DNA of 64,000 bases, taken from a virus (taxonomy: Duplodnaviria > Caudoviricetes). The position numbers and the translations under genes were made by a program. The stretch is from positions 89,653 through 153,652 of the IMG/VR virus record IMGVR_UViG_3300013121_000025; one strand, given 5' to 3'. Below, piece after piece: positions 2,334-52,752 of this stretch (the first letter of the stretch is position 1; each line of letters starts with the position of its first letter). The notes beneath the pieces were generated by a model. It was not told where the DNA came from, ran no database searches, and worked only from the letters and a program-made list of their open reading frames with translations.

Positions 2334-2372
2334 CCGAATCGAGTTCCTGTTGGAACTCGCGTGATTTGTGTT

Positions 2373-2762
2373 CAAAAAATGAATAATTAATATATTCATT
2401 CACTTCGTTCATTCATATATTAATTATTAGCGCTTTTAAATCCATTGAAATCCTAGAATTTGATCCCCCGTTTAGAGTAGAGTACACACACTACTCAGGG
2501 GTATGAAACGGTAACACGCCCCAGTCACTCATTATGACCATAGAGATTAGAATTAAAATTCATTTTTGAATATATCAATGGATAATGGTCTCATAAAGAT
2601 AGCACCACCCGTTCACAAGGAAGATCATCTAATCCTCTTCCAAGGCATGACGACGATATTGTGAAATCCATCACTTAATACGCAAACAACGTACCACCGC
2701 CCAACGATTCGTATCAATTATTACAGATTAGATGTGTAATAATCGAATTGTAAAATTCATGA
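2373..2762 (-). ncRNA. Candidate structured non-coding RNA (or replication-origin region)
   Basis: ORF-free, several stems, upstream promoter at 2768-2796 and a 14-bp stem plus U tract at the 3' end; no recognisable tRNA/tmRNA/RNase P/intron motifs. Confidence 0.45.
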
Positions 2763-2767
2763 AAATA

Positions 2768-2796
2768 AAAATACTTCGGTTTAAAACGAAAGTCAA
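2768..2796 (-). promoter_or_regulatory. Sigma70-type promoter pointing into the non-coding region
   Basis: (G)TTGACT-17nt-TATTTT; -10 is imperfect. Confidence 0.5.
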
Positions 2797-2800
2797 CGAA

Positions 2801-3400
2801 TTATTTTTTACCTTTTTTAGTAAGCATTTTATTTTTTATTGTGTCTACTTTTGATGAAATGGTTAACCATTCTTGAATGCTATCATAAGAACGTTCATTT
2901 CTGGCTTGAATAACTTTCGCTAATTTAAAGAAAACAGAAGCATCCACTATCATAAATTCTTCATGATAGCGTAAGAAATTATTCATTTCAGCGTTTGTAA
3001 TATCCATAAAATGATAAGGCAACACACAATATGTACCTTTTCTTGATGTTCTGAAAAATAATAATGGAGTTCGTTTGGAATTAATAGCATCAAATAATGC
3101 TTCACCAATCCATCCATCAAGATCAGTATCATAATCGTTTATTAATTTTCCGAGATTTGGTTTGTCACCATAATTCTTACATTCAATACTAAATCTGAAC
3201 CACGATGGACAGATAATATCCGAACCGAGGGCCTTTTTTGTAGAATCTTCTAAGTTTTGATTTTTTTCGTAATTTGACAAACCCATAATAGCACCAGAAC
3301 TTGGTGTACGAGCGAATTCTTCTGTTTCGAATGCTTGATTGAGCAAATCTCTCATCTCACGTTCGAGACGATTTCCCTTTGCTTTACTTTTACTAGTCAT
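2801..3400 (-). CDS. Holliday junction resolvase (Hjc-like PD-(D/E)XK nuclease)
   Basis: SKAKGNRLERE...GSDIICP...SIECK motifs; next to gp46/gp47. Confidence 0.8.
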   Translation of the reverse strand: MTSKSKAKGNRLEREMRDLLNQAFETEEFARTPSSGAIMGLSNYEKNQNLEDSTKKALGSDIICPSWFRFSIECKNYGDKPNLGKLINDYDTDLDGWIGEALFDAINSKRTPLLFFRTSRKGTYCVLPYHFMDITNAEMNNFLRYHEEFMIVDASVFFKLAKVIQARNERSYDSIQEWLTISSKVDTIKNKMLTKKGKK

Positions 3401-3675: not shown

Positions 3676-6480
3676 TTATGTTTCTTTAATTTGCGAGAAA
3701 CCATTACTCATTTGTACAGTGAGAATATTCTCGAAGATATTCTCCACTTCGTCTCTATGTGAGATAATATATACAGATAAGTTTTCTTGTTTTGCTTTGC
3801 GTTTGATTAATTTCGCAGCAGCTTGAATGCCTAATGCATCTAAGCCCACATCCAACACTTCATCAAACATACAAATATTGATAGGATCATGTAATTTCTG
3901 TAACAAATCTCTAAATGCTAATGATAATGATAAGTTAACACGAGCTCTTTGTCCATTAGATAAATTACCAAAGTCGATCTCACGACCATAACTAGATATA
4001 CGAGCTGTGAGTTCTGAGGTAAATTCAACTTTATGTGGCAATCCTAATTCGTTAAGGTATTCTTTAAGTTGTTTATTAAGATATGGTAAATTCTTTTCGA
4101 GCAATACCTTTCTCACGAAAGAATCTTTTTTGGTTAAAATCTTTTGTAAGAATTTTTGATGTTCGAGTAATTTTGTCAATTCATTAATCTCATCATAATT
4201 AATAGATGGCAATGCAATACTTTCTAATTCTTTTAAAGGTTCGATGAAAGGATTTACAGCTGTTTCAAGATCTGCGAGTTTCTGTTTAGCAGAATTAACC
4301 TCTTGTTGTTTAGCTGATAAGTCTTTCATATTATCGAAATGTGCAAGCTTATATAATGCTTCTAATTCTTTTACTATTTTAGTAGATTGTTTTTCCATTA
4401 TATCTACAGCAATTGAATACTCTTTAATTTTAGGAGTATTTGTTTCAATTGCTGCTAATAATTCATTTAATTTTGTCTTCGTATCAGCATAATGTTGATG
4501 ACAATATGGACACTCATGATTATTAAGTTGTTTAATTTCATTCTTCCATTTTGTTTCGTTTGTGAGCAAAGTATTTAAATCCTTTGCGATAACATTCTTT
4601 TCTGATTTTAATTTAGTGAGTTGGTTTGTCTTTTCACTAATGGAGTTAATGATTTCTAATTCAGCTTCGAAGTCAAAATCTTTGAATTTCTCTAAAGTAT
4701 TTTGAATTGAAACGCGTTGGTTATTATTCGTATCTTGCCAAGTCTTAATTCTATTCTTAGCAGATATTAATTGTTGTTCATGACGTTGATGTTCACCTTT
4801 AACAGCTTCTATTTTAAATTCAGCTTGTTTAATAGCTACTTGTGTATCTTTAATTTTTTCCTTAAGAACATCAGCCTTAACAGACAATTCTGTTAACCCA
4901 TTTAAATGTTCCATAATTGCAGTTTGTTCAGCAGACGTTAATTCTAAAAATGGAACACGTGTAGCAGAGAATACAACAATATGAACAAACATATCATACG
5001 GAATTCCTATAATTTGTTCGATATAAGCATTAGTATTAGCTATACTATCTCTTGTAACATCTTTATCGTTAATCCAAAGTTTAACATAGTTACCATCTTT
5101 CGCTTTTCGAGCACGTTCTATTTTAATAACATCTTCGCCTTTCTCAAATGTTGTAGTAACAACCATGTTCTTTTTATTGATATTATTAATTAGGTTATCT
5201 TTTGAGATGTTAGATAATGCTTTATCATATGCAGCAAAAGTAAGAGCATTAAGCAACGTTGTGTTATGAGTTACAATAAAATCATTTGTAATATATAATT
5301 TATCAGGATGATCAACTGAAATACACTGTGCTTCTTTTTTTCCTACATATTCAACATTAGAAATGCGTAATCCACTATTTCCGTATTGAGATATCTCATT
5401 AAGTAAACTTTTCTTTCGAGAGCATTTAACTAGATTTGTTTGATTTTTATATCTTATAGTAATATCGTATGCTAACTTACCTGGAATTTTAATTCTGTCT
5501 TTATTATAATAAAAAGGACGTCTAATACGTACAGACGCAATACCACCTAATGATCTAACAAGATATTGTACTTGTTCAGATAATTGTTTACTAGTCGTAC
5601 AAAATGAAAGTCCGTGTGTTTTTGAGACGAAACCATCAGTATCAATAAGTCCTGCAAGTAATTCTTCTTTTTGTTTAACACTAGTATTCATCATGTATAT
5701 TTCAGGAATAAATTTCTCATGGGAATATACGTCTTTTAATCCTAATTCTGTTATAATTCGTGTTAAGTGTTTAAAAGACCCTTTAATTCTCCAATTTAAT
5801 CCATCTTCACCACTTAACGTGGCTTGTAATGTGGTTAATTTATTATTAATTGCATTTATTACATCATGATCTTTGTTTGTAAATGTTATACCTTTATCAG
5901 TAAAGCCACCATCTCCTAATAAACATCCTAGTAGATAAGGATCTAAGGGTAAATCAACATCAGGAACATCAGGATGTGTTACCAACGGAACGAAAATATT
6001 ATACCAAGCTTTCTTTTTTTCTTTTGCTTTCGATAAAAGAGGAATAAGATCTTTTGTGGATAATAGTTTCGATTGTCTCGATTTTCCATCTTTAACCCAC
6101 ATATGACTTTCTACTTTCCATAAATGCTCGGAACAAGCCTCTACATATCTTCCATCTTGAAATGTTACTTTATAAATGTCGACTGCTCCTTGAGGATACA
6201 CACCTACAACGCTACATATTTCACCTGAAGGCGTAGTTACTTTATCATTAACTTTTATTTCTCCCATGGTTGTCCAACCTGAAGGAGTTTTAATTTTACT
6301 ATCGAGAGTTAATGCTTTTCCCAATCCATTGCTCGTTACTCCAAATACAGTACTATCTAAGTTTTCACCTAGAATTAAAGTAGTACCAATATGATCAAAT
6401 GTAAAGGTGGTAGTATTATTACCATATGACATGAAATTACGTAATGTAACTTCTTTGAATTTTATTATTTTTCCACTCAT
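3676..6480 (-). CDS. SbcC/Rad50/T4 gp46-like recombination ATPase, intein-containing
   Basis: LRNFMSYG, Walker A NGLGK[intein]TT, zinc hook CPYC, signature LSNGQ, Walker B MFDE, IISH. Confidence 0.93.
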   Translation of the reverse strand: MSGKIIKFKEVTLRNFMSYGNNTTTFTFDHIGTTLILGENLDSTVFGVTSNGLGKALTLDSKIKTPSGWTTMGEIKVNDKVTTPSGEICSVVGVYPQGAVDIYKVTFQDGRYVEACSEHLWKVESHMWVKDGKSRQSKLLSTKDLIPLLSKAKEKKKAWYNIFVPLVTHPDVPDVDLPLDPYLLGCLLGDGGFTDKGITFTNKDHDVINAINNKLTTLQATLSGEDGLNWRIKGSFKHLTRIITELGLKDVYSHEKFIPEIYMMNTSVKQKEELLAGLIDTDGFVSKTHGLSFCTTSKQLSEQVQYLVRSLGGIASVRIRRPFYYNKDRIKIPGKLAYDITIRYKNQTNLVKCSRKKSLLNEISQYGNSGLRISNVEYVGKKEAQCISVDHPDKLYITNDFIVTHNTTLLNALTFAAYDKALSNISKDNLINNINKKNMVVTTTFEKGEDVIKIERARKAKDGNYVKLWINDKDVTRDSIANTNAYIEQIIGIPYDMFVHIVVFSATRVPFLELTSAEQTAIMEHLNGLTELSVKADVLKEKIKDTQVAIKQAEFKIEAVKGEHQRHEQQLISAKNRIKTWQDTNNNQRVSIQNTLEKFKDFDFEAELEIINSISEKTNQLTKLKSEKNVIAKDLNTLLTNETKWKNEIKQLNNHECPYCHQHYADTKTKLNELLAAIETNTPKIKEYSIAVDIMEKQSTKIVKELEALYKLAHFDNMKDLSAKQQEVNSAKQKLADLETAVNPFIEPLKELESIALPSINYDEINELTKLLEHQKFLQKILTKKDSFVRKVLLEKNLPYLNKQLKEYLNELGLPHKVEFTSELTARISSYGREIDFGNLSNGQRARVNLSLSLAFRDLLQKLHDPINICMFDEVLDVGLDALGIQAAAKLIKRKAKQENLSVYIISHRDEVENIFENILTVQMSNGFSQIKET
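5263..6315 (-). mobile_element. Class 3 (Ala1, WCT) intein with LAGLIDADG endonuclease (351 aa)
   Basis: Starts ALTLDSKIKTPSGW; block B ACSEHLW, block F AQCISV, block G VTHN then Thr; LGCLLGDG and LAGLIDTDG motifs. Confidence 0.9.
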
Positions 6481-7748: not shown

Positions 7749-8232
7749 CACTACCCCATCCATGATACATTGAATCTACGCATGTAGAATCTGAATCCGA
7801 ATGTGCATGATCTATTTGGAATGTAAAAGATGGATTCAGACCATTTTCAATAAGAAGAGTGTCACGAATATCACGTTGTCTCTTTTCAGCGTTAAGATAT
7901 TGAGAAAAACTATGTTTAATACATTGTGTATAGAAAGCGAAAGGATTATTACTTTTTTCAGGATCGAATGCTTTCCACGTACGACACAACATCATCATAG
8001 CGTATGCTTGCATATCAGTATTATATGTATAATTTACATAATTACCTTTGTTAGCATATCTATAACATAAAAGTTGCAACATTTTTGCAAGTTCGTTGGT
8101 CATTTTATTCTGTTCTTTGCTTAATTTGATTTGGGTCATCAAATCTTTGTTGTTTAGGTAGTTTTTCTTCTTTGCTGGTTTTGGTTGATTGATATCAAAC
8201 TCTACTTCTTCTAAATTATTGTTATCTGTCAT
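7741..8232 (-). CDS. Late-transcription sigma factor, T4 gp55-like
   Basis: KNYLNNKDL, YTYNTDM, FDPEKSNNPFAFYTQ, EKRQ; position upstream of gp47/gp46 as in T4-like phages. Confidence 0.82.
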   Translation of the reverse strand: MTDNNNLEEVEFDINQPKPAKKKNYLNNKDLMTQIKLSKEQNKMTNELAKMLQLLCYRYANKGNYVNYTYNTDMQAYAMMMLCRTWKAFDPEKSNNPFAFYTQCIKHSFSQYLNAEKRQRDIRDTLLIENGLNPSFTFQIDHAHSDSDSTCVDSMYHGWGSDD

Positions 8233-8274
8233 TTTTTAACTCTTTGATACCTTTAGGTATCACCTTCATTCATG

Positions 8275-8303
8275 ATTATATACGAAATTTTACTTAAGGT
8301 CAA
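8275..8303 (-). promoter_or_regulatory. Sigma70-type promoter for the gp55-gp47-gp46 operon
   Basis: (G)TTGACC-17nt-TATAAT. Confidence 0.8.
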
Positions 8304-8308
8304 CCTGG

Positions 8309-8315
8309 ATAAATA
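8309..8315 (+). promoter_or_regulatory. T4-type late promoter
   Basis: ATAAATA 23 nt upstream of the first baseplate gene. Confidence 0.7.
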
Positions 8316-8338
8316 AAGAAAATAGGTTTTAAGTTATT

Positions 8339-8959
8339 ATGGCTGACGTATTGTCCAACATTACCATGAAAGTAAGTCTCCGTGAAATTGGAGCTACTTC
8401 TATGGATCGTATATTTACTTATAAGACTACTCCGACTATAAGTGAAGCCCAAACAGTCGAATATAAACAATTCAATCCTGTACACGCTCCAGGATCTATT
8501 AACACGTTCGTAAATTCACCTTCGAGAACCTTTTCGTTTGGTGATGTAAAGTTAATTTCAAGAACTCAACGAGAGGCCACGGAAACTCTTAAAAACATAC
8601 GTTTATTGAGATCATGGACAAAGCCTGTATTTGGATTAGGGGTAACACCAGATGCATTCAAGAATGATCCTAATTCATTTTCTAATGAAGACATATTAGG
8701 AGCACCACCACGTGTATTATTTTTAAGTGCTTACACAAATCATGGCGATGTAAATGGAATTCTCAAAAATATTCCTGTTGTAGTTACTTCCTTAACATTC
8801 AATTATCCAAACGATGTGGATTATATGATTTTACAAGATGGATCAGCAGTGCCTGTGGTTATGAATGTTGAAATTTCTGTTACAGAAACTCACTCTCCGA
8901 TTGAGTACACAAAATTTAGTTTAGCAAAATATCGTAACGGCGATATGGTGAGGTTCTAA
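8339..8959 (+). CDS. Baseplate/tail-tube initiator-like structural protein
   Basis: GAPPRVLFL...NIPVVVTSLTFNYPNDVDY; first gene of the baseplate cluster. Confidence 0.55.
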   Translation: MADVLSNITMKVSLREIGATSMDRIFTYKTTPTISEAQTVEYKQFNPVHAPGSINTFVNSPSRTFSFGDVKLISRTQREATETLKNIRLLRSWTKPVFGLGVTPDAFKNDPNSFSNEDILGAPPRVLFLSAYTNHGDVNGILKNIPVVVTSLTFNYPNDVDYMILQDGSAVPVVMNVEISVTETHSPIEYTKFSLAKYRNGDMVRF

Positions 8960-13610: not shown

Positions 13611-16600
13611 ATGACAAGACAGATAGCAAGAGCAGAAAGTTGGCAACGTGTATACGAAGCTTTCCAAGACATTAATTTTGCTGGATTTGATTATTATACT
13701 ATCAAATCTGGTATGCTTGATTATTTAAAACTACACTTTCCTGAATCATTTAATGATTACATTGAATCGAGTGAGTTAATATCAATCATTGAAATGTTCG
13801 CATATGTGTGCGAAGTGTTAGCATATCGTTTTGATATGAATGCTCACGAGAACATTCTTTCTTTAGCAGAGAGAAAGAAAGGTGTATTGCGTCTTGCTAA
13901 GTTACTCTCATATACAGCATCCAGAAACATCCCGCTTCGTGGATTAGTTAAAATAACTTCAATTTCTACTACAGAAACGTTATATGATTCACGTGGTATT
14001 AATTTAGCTAATAAGAAGATCTCATGGAATGATACTAATAATATTAACTGGAAAGAACAATTTATTCTTGTAATGAATAAAATCTTACAGCAACAATTTG
14101 GTACAGTTTATCCATCTGATAGAGTGCAAGTTGATGACATTTTGTTTGAATTATACAAACTAAACAATAATCCTCTTTCGAGCGGCGTACTAACATATAA
14201 TGTTACGGCTAATAGTAAATCAGTACCGATGGAATTGGTGCCTGTCTCATTAACAGAGTCAGGTCCTATCGAACGTAGACCAGAGCGTTCGAGTAATTTT
14301 AGTGTATTATATGCATCAGATGGAATTGGCGACTCGTCAGACTTTACTGGTTTCTTTATGTATACCAAACAAGGTTCCTTACAGCGTATTACCACAACCT
14401 TCGACGGAATTACGCCAAATCAAGTTTATAATATAGATGTTTCTAACATTAACGATATTGATGTATGGGTTAATAATGTAAACAGCGAATCTGGTGCAGT
14501 ATTAAAAGAGCGTGTTGTAGATTTATTAGGTCGTGATCTTGGTTATTTTGGTGAATGGGAGCAAGTTGATACTTCTAATTCAAAAAACATTTTATTCAAT
14601 AATAATCCTAAGCGTAATAAATTTGAAATCGAAACATTAGAAGACGATAAGGTTAAGTTAATCTTTGGTGACGGGGAATTTGCTGACATTCCTCAAGGAA
14701 CATTCGACATATGGTTCAGAACATCTTTAAACGAAGAAATTGTCGTTCCGAAATCAGAAATCGTAAACAAAACTGCTACACTTAAGTACCAAAGTGAATT
14801 AAATGTACCACAGACACTTACTATTACATTTAGTGCTGTCAATGCATTAGCAAATAATGCTCCGTCTGAATCTGTTGAATCAATTAAACGTTTAGCATCT
14901 ACAGTATATTATACACAAGATCGTATGGTAAATGGAGTAGATTATAATTCGTATATTTTACAAGATCCTTCTGTGTTAAAAGTCAAAACTGTTAACAGAA
15001 CGTTCGTTGGAGATTCAAAATATATTAAGTGGCACGATCCATCAGGATCATATGAAAATGTAAAAGTTTTTGGTGATGATTTAAGAGTATTTTATATTGA
15101 TGATACTGTTCAAGTATCAATACCAGCCTTTACACCACGCGAAGAAGTTGTTAATAATTACATTCAATCTAAATTAGGCGAATCTGGTGTACAATTGTTT
15201 CATATTACTAATAACATTCCGACAAACAGAACAACATTTACTGCTAGTGAGTTAACACAAATTAATAATACTGTACAGCAAGCGATCGATACAAATGCAG
15301 GATTTCCAGTATTAGTAGCATTTATTAAAACTGATACTAAAGGTTATTCTGGAATTAGATTTAATCCTATACCTGAATTTGCCAATGAGGACAGTTTAGA
15401 TAATGGATTAGTAACATATTTAGAATCTAATGATATTGCATGCTCTATAACGATCGACGGTATTGAATACAATTTTGATATTACAACAACAGATTTTAAT
15501 AGTACTGATCTCCCAACATTATTACGTATTCGTGACGTGTTACAAGAAAAAATAACAACTGCAATTCTTTCTACAGACAATGTGGAAATAATTGATAAAA
15601 CGATTTTCATAAAGAGTACAACAACTGGAAGCACTTCTAGTATTGTTTTAAACTTACCATTTTTACAACTTCTTACTAACGATCCTGAAGTAACTACTTC
15701 TGTTAATGGGGTTAACTCAGGAACTTGGATAGCGTACTCTACTGATGTTGAGTTATTAACTCCTTATACTTTTAGTATCGCATACACTTCGCCAAATTGG
15801 GATGTAACAAGTAGTGAAATTTCAATGCAGTGTGAAAGTCCAACTACAAAGTTTTGGAATACTAATAAGACTACAACAGTGAGTGAATTCACCTACGATG
15901 TCGAACGTGATAAGATTGTGTTACTTAAGGCAAACTATGATAAAACAGGAGAAGCATTACTTTCTTCATACATTGAATTAGATGTTGTGGGAATGGTAAA
16001 TGAAACAGATACTGAAAATATCGGATTGCCTAATATTAATCGTTTACAAGTAATATCACAAGATTTAAATAATGATTTAATTCCTGATGATCCGTATTTG
16101 TATAATGAATTATTGAATAAAACCATTTATACTCATACTGTTGCAAGTACCCCAGCTGTTGTGTATGGTCCAGTTATGATAGGGGATGAAGTATTTGAAT
16201 GGAAAGCAGGATACGATAATGTTGAAGTGTATTTAAATGATACTAAACTTAATGCTACTCAGTTTATCGAATGTGACGAAAACGGTGATCCTGTTAATAA
16301 TGGTGATCTTGTATCGTATGTTAAGATTCCTGATGCAGTATTCGAGGATAACATTGAATTGAAAAAAATCGATTATTTGTTCTTCAAACGTGATAACGTA
16401 AATTCCCCTTATGTATATTATTGTGCTGACAACGAGATTTCTTCTGATGAAGAAGATACTTGGTTTACTACACACGAAGATGATGAAGCACTAATACAAC
16501 GTTATCGTGGTCGTAATGGATTAAACTTTGCGTGGTACTATATTGCTCCTAATTATACTCTCGTTGATCCTGCTCCAACGAATATTCATGATATGTTTAT

Positions 16601-52250: not shown

Positions 52251-52251
52251 T

Positions 52252-52292
52252 AAAAAACCTCATTGATCCGTTATTTATGGATCAATGAGGTT
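52252..52292 (-). terminator. 14-bp stem-loop with U tract; late promoter in loop, RBS in 3' arm
   Basis: Minus strand AACCTCATTGATCC-ATAAATAAC-GGATCAATGAGGTT-TTTT-A-ATG. Confidence 0.8.
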
Positions 52293-52297
52293 GAAGA

Positions 52298-52522
52298 TTA
52301 TACTCGTTTGATAGATTTAATAAACTCACGACAAGCATTAACATGCTCATATACCATACAACTTGGTCCAATCGTAATCTCATGAATGTACCATGCAAAA
52401 TCGCTTTGAATCTTATAAGTATCGTTACCACGTTGGGCATCAGGATATCCTTTAGTGGCATTTCGGAATTGATTAGTTAAATCTTTCACAAGTTCTTTAA
52501 CAGGAATTGTACTAATTGTCAT
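52298..52522 (-). CDS. Hypothetical protein
   Basis: 74 aa, AAGGAG RBS, promoter TTGATT-17-TATAAG at 52552-52580. Confidence 0.75.
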   Translation of the reverse strand: MTISTIPVKELVKDLTNQFRNATKGYPDAQRGNDTYKIQSDFAWYIHEITIGPSCMVYEHVNACREFIKSIKRV

Positions 52523-52624
52523 TACTTTGTTCTCCTTATAGTGAATAGTGACTTATATATGATCCCTTAATTAAAATCAAAAATCAACATCTAAAAAAAT
52601 TGTTATAATTACCTGAATTCACTG

Positions 52625-52653
52625 TTGTTTTTAAATCGATTTTAATATATAAT
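52625..52653 (+). promoter_or_regulatory. Sigma70-type promoter for nrdA
   Basis: (G)TTGTTT-17nt-TATAAT. Confidence 0.6.
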
Positions 52654-52752
52654 GTCCTTCTTAACTATCAGTAGTAAATAGAAACACATTCGAAGTTTCA
52701 TTGATGCAACGTCAATGAATGAAAATATATTTATAATAATCAAGGAGTTACA

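Follow-up and report, generated by a model that had tools for sequence, protein, structure and literature searches.

A family of structured RNAs upstream of a helicase gene

Comparative analysis identifies the minus strand between approximately positions 2375 and 2745 of a 64,000-nucleotide (nt) stretch of phage DNA (hereafter, the window) as the predicted source of a large structured RNA, a member of an uncatalogued family carried by T4-like jumbo phages. The window spans bases 89653–153652 of a 153.6-kb IMG/VR virus record (IMGVR_UViG_3300013121_000025; estimated to be 44% complete; 34% G+C). The RNA maps to a gap without open reading frames (ORFs) between a resolvase-like gene and an iron-sulfur (Fe-S) helicase gene (Table 1). 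Comparison with relatives divides the predicted molecule into a 5′ half that is lineage-specific (hairpin H2, a three-way junction and the Pe-Pd arm) and a 3′ core that is widely conserved. Both ends are inferred, and the length is roughly 400 bases. An earlier reading of the window without database searches (the sequence-only reading) had proposed an undescribed phage noncoding RNA (ncRNA) at this site. The proposal is borne out by a covarying, pseudoknotted domain on the sense strand, which occupies the same position in at least 20 related contigs and is absent from Rfam 15.

The gap (2276–2800, 525 nt) is the largest ORF-free interval in the window, as had been noted, and the third largest in the 153.6-kb record; its minus strand is the strand of the genes. 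Stop codons of two or more kinds interrupt each of the six reading frames and, thus, no single stop reassignment would open the gap. A coding gene, with or without stop-codon recoding, is therefore ruled out.

Comparative evidence for the fold

Homologues of the resolvase gave access to two metagenome loci, L010 and L011; the closest resolvase relatives (60–73% identity, Logan/ENA) are not among the loci compared. L010 has a 603-nt gap between the resolvase gene and an orthologous helicase gene, and the L011 contig stops approximately 510 nt into the gap, ahead of any helicase. The two gaps are approximately 85% alike, and these two sequences alone yield 9 compensatory pairs. Blocks common to both loci and the minus strand of the window are GGUACG...CGUAUUAAG, GCCUU, UUGUGAAYRGGYGGUGC and CUAAA(C)GGGGGAU. 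Nine helices can be written for the three sequences and all are kept, most with different letters. Stems first picked out in the sequence-only reading behave in this way. For example, ATTATTACA/TGTAATAAT corresponds to H2 (2716–2744) and GAGTAG/CTACTC to Pv (2475–2496), both kept with different letters in L010 and L011. GGAAGA/TCTTCC, which corresponds to Pd (2619–2641), reads CAAGUG/CACUUG in L010 and CAAGAG/CUCUUG in L011, giving three different Watson-Crick versions in three sequences. Elsewhere in the 5′ half, Pe changes from G.U to G-C, Pc is GACA/UGUC in L010 and L011, and in Pa just one strand of the helix varies (U.G to C-G, G-C to G.U).

An alignment of the helicase proteins widened the comparison to 80 IMG/VR loci, with orthologues that are 25–45% identical (mostly 36–45%). 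Most of these loci have a 300–800-nt ORF-free stretch upstream of the helicase gene, and several carry a hairpin followed by a pseudoknot, as in the window. Covariance models of the 3′ core, built from 6 sequences (R1) and from 12 (R2), recovered the core in 20 loci (E < 0.06, window included). In all 20 it lies on the helicase strand, in sense orientation, 100–450 nt upstream of the helicase start. R2 scores the window core (2445–2552) at 68.4 bits (E = 1.5e-21) and finds a single copy in the whole record. In the alignment of model matches, 92.9% of the cells are paired, versus 75.1% in shuffles, and in 11 of the 18 core pairs both partners have changed. Covariation scores 0.47, versus 0.16 in shuffles, with none of 500 shuffles reaching the observed value and slid pairing partners scoring at most 0.125; the alignment was fitted to the model, which favours structure, but the compensations are still plain in the raw rows. 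Furthermore, the nested core pairs comprise 192 Watson-Crick and 9 G.U combinations and no A.C, which assigns the fold to the sense strand. The position of the RNA is constant although the flanking proteins are only 40–50% identical between phages.

The pseudoknot of the core is formed by stems S1 and S2. S1 is CCCC/GGGG in the window and AAGG/CCUU, AGGG/CCCU or GCGGU/ACUGC in relatives. S2 pairs the S1 loop (GUUACCGUUU) with CUAAACGGGGG. Its versions (CCGUUU/AAACGG, CCCGAUU/AAUACGGG, CCCCUUC/GAAGGGG and CCCGUC/GACGGG) are nearly invariant within subgroups and differ between them; a small hairpin carries the last of the four. The sequence-only reading had seen the CCGTTT/AAACGG pairing (2468–73 with 2506–11) but taken it for a competing stem; the pairing stands, as the second stem of a conserved pseudoknot. 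Two of its other stems did not survive the comparison. The CCCC at 2498–2501 pairs with the GGGG at 2519–2522 (S1) and not with the G run at 2463–69, and the stem drawn at 2532–41/2585–96 finds no comparative support and overlaps the conserved UAUGG-Px element.

Subgroups vary in their peripheral 5′ domains and in the gene upstream of the RNA. Several searches delimit the reach of the family. The window resolvase protein alone had no match among viral contigs. Relatives reached through the resolvase alignment are only 33–34% identical, and the RNA model found nothing in them. Scans of viral contigs and GTDB genomes with 5′-domain motifs returned chance matches only, and R2, run with filters off, had no match in L224, L238 or L009, whose regions are regarded as analogous only. 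In the last of these, a GC-rich relative, two small ORFs lie between resolvase and helicase (1221–1743). One encodes a CxxC...CxxC zinc-ribbon protein, and a 340-nt gap unmatched by the RNA model follows.

Folding energy and catalogue searches

Comparison of folding energy with shuffled controls favoured the whole gap, with z scores of −4.1 for the minus strand and −4.8 for the plus strand, but not the core alone (z = −1.1). Both strands fold well and, thus, single-sequence folding cannot tell them apart. The case for the RNA rests on comparative evidence and not on folding energy. The core is GC-richer than its flanks, as the sequence-only reading had it, though mildly (0.37–0.39 versus approximately 0.30 in the surroundings).

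Rfam 15 had no match for the window at the gathering score or for the relatives, and 900 nt comprising the gap and its surroundings, searched at E up to 10, returned only noise. The models covered include the group I intron, tmRNA, RNase P, HDV-like and pistol ribozymes, GOLLD, ROOL, HEARO and riboswitches. ARAGORN called no tRNA or tmRNA. BLASTN of the gap and of the L010 gap against GenBank phages had no match. Synteny holds, with a gap at the same place before the helicase in relatives. No description of the RNA was found in Rfam 15 or in the searchable literature.

Other candidates were rejected. A group I intron has no Rfam match, the genes on either side are intact and distinct, and the helicase protein aligns from Met1 onwards. 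An HDV-like or pistol ribozyme has a similar strand order, but the fold leaves no room for P3/L3 and no model matches. A repeat or mobile element is contradicted by the record, which holds only the self match. Short complementarity of GUUACCG to the 530 loop of 16S rRNA was within chance and was dropped.

Cultured relatives

The Xanthomonas phages XacN1 and Xoo-sp13 and the Stenotrophomonas phages RAS14 and CM1 are related to the window phage by their helicases (approximately 44% identity). XacN1, Xoo-sp13 and RAS14 have an unannotated gap of 680–820 nt at the same place. The gap is highly conserved among the three, with 98 predicted pairs, 25 of them compensatory, and includes a 13-bp pairing of AAUAAACCCCCCG with CGGGGGGUUUAUU. 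Neither R1 (default filters) nor R2 (filters off) matched these three phages, and an nhmmer profile of the XacN1-group region had no match in the other loci. We therefore call the cultured-phage region analogous to the window RNA rather than homologous.

A boxA-like CGCUCUUA in XacN1 was considered and set aside, as it is not conserved in RAS14. The XacN1 locus (L298) also carries an annotation, the 53-amino acid 'predicted ORF313', at 2766–2927 on the opposite strand, inside the covarying non-coding region. This ORF is probably not a gene.

Flanks of the RNA

Table 1. Features of the ORF-free gap and its flanking genes (positions in the window).
Feature	Position	Strand	Description
PDDEXK_15 resolvase-like gene	2801–3400	−	Upstream of the RNA
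Promoter-like site TTGACT-17-TATTTT	2768–2796	−	9/12 match; 40 such sites versus 49 expected in 8 kb
H2, first conserved hairpin	2716–2744	−	GAUUAUUACA/UGUAAUAAUU; UUACCCUAACUUC/GAAGUUAGGGUAA in L010, UUACCCGAAUC/GAUUCGGGUAA in L011
Three-way junction	2650–2700	−	Pa GCGGUG/CGUCGU; Pb GUACG/CGUAU, then invariant UAUUAAG; Pc GUGA/UCAC
Pe-Pd arm	2606–2647	−	Pe UGCC/GGUG; Pd GGAAGA/UCUUCC; conserved internal loop UUGUGAAYRGG
Middle segment	2553–2605	−	No fold assigned; supported by neither alignment nor covariation; L010/L011 have ~100 nt more
Conserved core	2445–2552	−	UAUGG, Px, S1, loop GCGUGUUACCGUUUCAUA, Pv, pseudoknot S2, G run
Px hairpin	2524–2538	−	Preceded by (G)UUAUGG (element 2524–2543); 4/4 pairs covary, 96% of cells paired
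S1 stem	2519–2522 with 2498–2501	−	Encloses loop GCGUGUUACCGUUU; all cells paired, 3/4 pairs changed on both sides
Pseudoknot S2	2506–2511 with 2468–2473	−	S1 loop with CUAAACGG; four complementary versions across subgroups
Pv, inserted hairpin	2475–2496	−	GAGTAG/CTACTC
G run	2463–2469	−	Part of S2 in the modelled family
Perfect 14-bp AT stem	2382–2428	−	Apex GAAUGA-AC-GAA-GU-GAAUGA; 2400–2410 = GAACGAAGUGA
U6 tract	2374–2379	−	2 nt after the AT hairpin; possible 3′ end of the RNA
Hairpin CGAGUUCC-AACA-GGAACUCG	2340–2359	−	After the U6 tract
Helicase promoter TTGACA-17-TAAAAT	2305–2333	−	11/12 match, best of the 8 kb scanned
Fe-S DinG/XPD-like helicase gene	2–2275	−	870 amino acids in the full record; Hint+LAGLIDADG intein

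The sequence-only reading had given the element a promoter and a terminator-like end of its own, and both assignments are now doubtful. The TTGACT-17-TATTTT site exists, but its frequency is no higher than expected (Table 1), and it overlaps a weak hairpin (2773–2793) and U-rich tail that follow the resolvase stop directly. The corresponding edge in RAS14 carries TTGACT-17-TATACT; L010, L011 and the group 2 loci have no sigma-70-like site there. At the other end, the AT stem (2382–95/2415–28), the U tract (2374–79) and the CGAGTTCC/GGAACTCG stem (2340–59) are all present as described. The hairpin is AT-rich, unlike the clear intrinsic terminators of this phage, which are GC-rich with GAAA tetraloops and T runs (record positions 67647, 38193 and 762 (−)). 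The terminator scan did not call the hairpin and U6 tract because the stem has no G-C pairs. Most relatives have no U tract after their hairpins.

The apex of the AT stem is predicted to close through tandem G.A pairs and a C-GAA-G triloop. In L224, L238 and L258, hairpins upstream of the helicase have the 11-mer GAACGAAGUGA at their apexes too. The stem forms an AT-only palindrome (2382–2428), but such stretches are common in a genome of 34% G+C, and neither DNA nor RNA energy models distinguish well between the hairpin strands.

The zone 3′ of the core in relatives contains long hairpins capped by ACGAAGU, ACGCAGU, GCGAAGC, GCGCAGC, GCGCCAGC, GCGACAGC and similar loops. DNA mini-hairpin motifs of the GCGNAGC and GCGNNAGC type have been reported at the phage G4 origin, RSF1010 ssiA and the N4 early promoters, and are far more stable as DNA than as RNA (PMC13037366). 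The strict motif GCG(N)1-2AGC has 28 sense copies in a total of 22 kb of sequence upstream of the helicase (21 of 64 loci), a density of 1.27 per kb versus 0.24 per kb elsewhere in the same loci. Runs of at least five G stand on the sense strand in 34 of 66 loci (C runs of that length in 6), and their median position relative to the helicase start is −180.

The helicase gene of the window has a near-consensus promoter, and matching consensus promoters precede the helicase in XacN1, Xoo-sp13, RAS14, L218, L223, L225 and L238. L218, L223, L231 and L238 have a TATAAT-like −10 box 6–8 nt before the helicase ATG and no Shine-Dalgarno sequence. This spacing suggests that the helicase mRNA is probably leaderless in these four loci and indicates that the RNA is not a helicase 5′ untranslated region (UTR) there. 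In the window, a 20-bp perfect palindrome, TTACGCGAT-AA-ATCGCGTAA (2308–2327), fills the promoter spacer and is nested in a longer inverted repeat, ATTCGGTGA...TCAACCGAAT (2297–2339). The palindrome looks like an operator for a dimeric repressor.

Possible role in replication initiation

Our preferred interpretation, tentative and rated below an even chance, is that the RNA is a cis-acting pre-primer or origin RNA linked to replication. We rank it slightly above a free-standing ncRNA because of the address in a replication module, the constant link to the helicase, the DNA-type hairpin motifs on the strand expected to be displaced in an R-loop and the precedent of phage T4. The RNA would be made early and act in cis at the start of replication, like the RNA II pre-primer of ColE1. 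Whether the transcript remains paired with the AT-rich DNA immediately downstream would depend on its fold and on the G run. The very stable hairpins capped by GNA or GNNA in that region would then form in the displaced sense strand, keeping the bubble from closing and providing a place to load or prime lagging-strand synthesis. The helicase encoded next to the RNA could assemble the R-loop or take it apart, in the manner of UvsW at T4 oriF/G. At the R-loop origins of T4, the primosome uses the non-template strand and a helicase unwinds the R-loops (PMC3016281).

Several observations weigh against a pre-primer. At T4 oriF/G, a middle promoter with an AT-rich unwinding element is sufficient, and the RNA need not have any particular sequence (PMC3016281). 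The deeply conserved pseudoknot and invariant loops therefore fit better an RNA with its own job, since neither a specific sequence nor a fold is needed at oriF/G. The G run is paired in S2, so the enrichment of such runs may only reflect the fold, and the AT hairpin with U6 could be a plain terminator. The window has no strict GCGNAGC or GCGNNAGC, only a relaxed ACGAAGT with flanking G.A pairs, and GCG(N)1-2AGC also has 8 antisense copies upstream of the helicase, versus the 28 in sense, with eight relatives having the motif in that opposite orientation. Finally, the sequence-only reading had raised an R-loop-primed origin like T4 oriF/oriG and named GC skew as a check on it. Skew was uninformative as an origin test and gave no global signal: in the window's own contig, in Xoo-sp13 and in RAS14, the cumulative curve does not reach a global extremum at the element. 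It shows only a local minimum, at a divergent strand switch 3–6 kb from the element, which transcription direction explains equally well.

A bolder extension of the pre-primer interpretation, which we consider unlikely on present sequence evidence, is that the pseudoknotted RNA and the DNA-type mini-hairpins together make up a new kind of origin used throughout the clade. The RNA fold would license R-loop priming beside the Fe-S helicase, in place of an initiator protein or a bare promoter and unwinding element.

Alternative explanations

A free-standing, trans-acting RNA with an ornate fold is a serious possibility, though one to which we give less than an even chance. Such an RNA would be transcribed from its own or an upstream promoter and end at the AT hairpin and U6. 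It could be the RNA partner in a ribonucleoprotein, or else a scaffold, a decoy or a catalyst, perhaps together with the helicase, and the GNA-capped hairpins would be no more than stable 3′-end or terminator structures. The invariant loops and covarying stems of the core are those of functional RNAs, and the variation of the 5′ domains between subgroups recalls ribozymes and other large RNAs. The single copy per record, the promoter-like sites at the 5′ edge in the window and RAS14, and the hairpin with U6 at the 3′ side are also consistent with a discrete transcript. Furthermore, phages carry other large RNAs whose role is unknown, such as GOLLD and ROOL. However, L010, L011 and the group 2 loci have no sigma-70 promoter at the 5′ edge, the U tract is absent after the hairpins in most relatives, and the AT hairpin does not resemble the GC-rich, GAAA-looped terminators that are clear in this phage. 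The loop motifs are also of the DNA type (GNA/GNNA) and not the GNRA or UNCG loops favoured by RNA (PMC13037366).

We regard a cis-regulatory RNA as improbable. It would be either a long structured 3′ UTR or stabiliser of the upstream operon, or a processive antitermination or attenuation element controlling read-through into the helicase and downstream genes. Its constant orientation immediately upstream of the helicase and the hairpins between core and helicase suit such a role. In addition, L010 and L011 have no promoter at the 5′ edge, so the RNA may be co-transcribed with the resolvase. Yet every subgroup has a near-consensus promoter for the helicase itself, with a leaderless start in several, and the upstream gene is not the same between subgroups. 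No riboswitch or leader in Rfam matches, and known elements of the put and EAR type are far smaller than a 300–500-nt RNA with a pseudoknot.

An element acting only as DNA (a cruciform, a protein-binding site or a decayed mobile element or pseudogene), with no functional RNA, is disfavoured and very improbable: although each strand of the whole gap outperforms shuffled sequence in folding, palindromes abound in the region and the genome is full of inteins and homing-endonuclease relics, the 9 G.U and absent A.C in nested pairs together with the covarying pseudoknot indicate a strand-specific fold, no frame has coding potential, there is no second copy or terminal repeat, and the position is kept across phages with flanking proteins that are 40–50% identical.

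Comparison with known systems

The window RNA resembles GOLLD (RF01998) and ROOL (RF03087), which are large, multi-helix, pseudoknotted, phage-borne ncRNAs of unknown biochemical role that were also found by comparative genomics. It differs from them in having no Rfam match at E up to 10. GOLLD and ROOL are typically near tRNA genes, whereas the window RNA lies in a replication/recombination module beside a helicase and is followed, in relatives, by GNA/GNNA mini-hairpins.

The pre-primer interpretation is modelled on RNA II of ColE1, a folded RNA of approximately 500 nt transcribed towards the replication start, in which a G-rich segment and the fold decide whether the hybrid forms. The likeness is one of proposed mechanism. 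The window RNA has no homology to RNA II and no antisense partner resembling RNA I, and the replicon is a phage genome of approximately 350 kb.

The likeness to oriF and oriG lies in a T4-like phage, a promoter-like site ahead of AT-rich DNA, a helicase close by for which R-loops are a possible substrate and a non-template strand that could serve primosome loading. The T4 origins are approximately 100 bp long, need a MotA middle promoter and require no specific RNA sequence (PMC3016281). The window, in contrast, has a conserved structured RNA of 300–500 nt and a sigma-70-like site matching at only 9 of 12 positions, with no MotA-type promoter established.

In the G4-type, ssiA and N4 systems, longer hairpins are capped by GCGNAGC, GCGNNAGC or CCGAAGG in regions of single-stranded DNA from which replication or transcription initiates (PMC13037366). 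These mini-hairpins act on the strands of single-stranded DNA phages or plasmids with known primases, or with the N4 virion RNA polymerase. The motif here differs in being only statistically enriched, and is relaxed in the window (ACGAAGT).

The RNA family is now defined by a model for searching, by a core fold that is firm and by its constant place in the genome. This matters because jumbo phages are abundant and their replication start sites and ncRNAs are almost unknown, and cultured phages with a similar region at the same address make bench work possible. If the RNA primes replication, initiation controlled by an RNA fold, as in ColE1-type plasmids, would extend to large viruses, and the DNA mini-hairpin motifs would gain a new natural role. 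If it is free-standing, it would join GOLLD and ROOL as a large phage RNA awaiting a function.

Genomic setting

The gap that holds the RNA belongs to a recombination/replication module and is surrounded by gp46/47-like genes, the resolvase gene and the helicase gene. The helicase has a Helicase_C_2 domain and four invariant cysteines, and its N-terminus aligns from Met1 in the helicase alignment. Its intein splits the Walker A motif between APVG and SGKS. The SMC/Rad50-like (gp46-like) gene at 3676–6480 (−) also carries a Hint+LAGLIDADG intein, and the helicase of L245 is apparently interrupted as well. Four further ORF-free gaps of approximately 500–585 nt occur at 52251–52752 of the window and at 1225–1809, 8103–8678 and 13772–14265 of the record, and could hold more RNAs.
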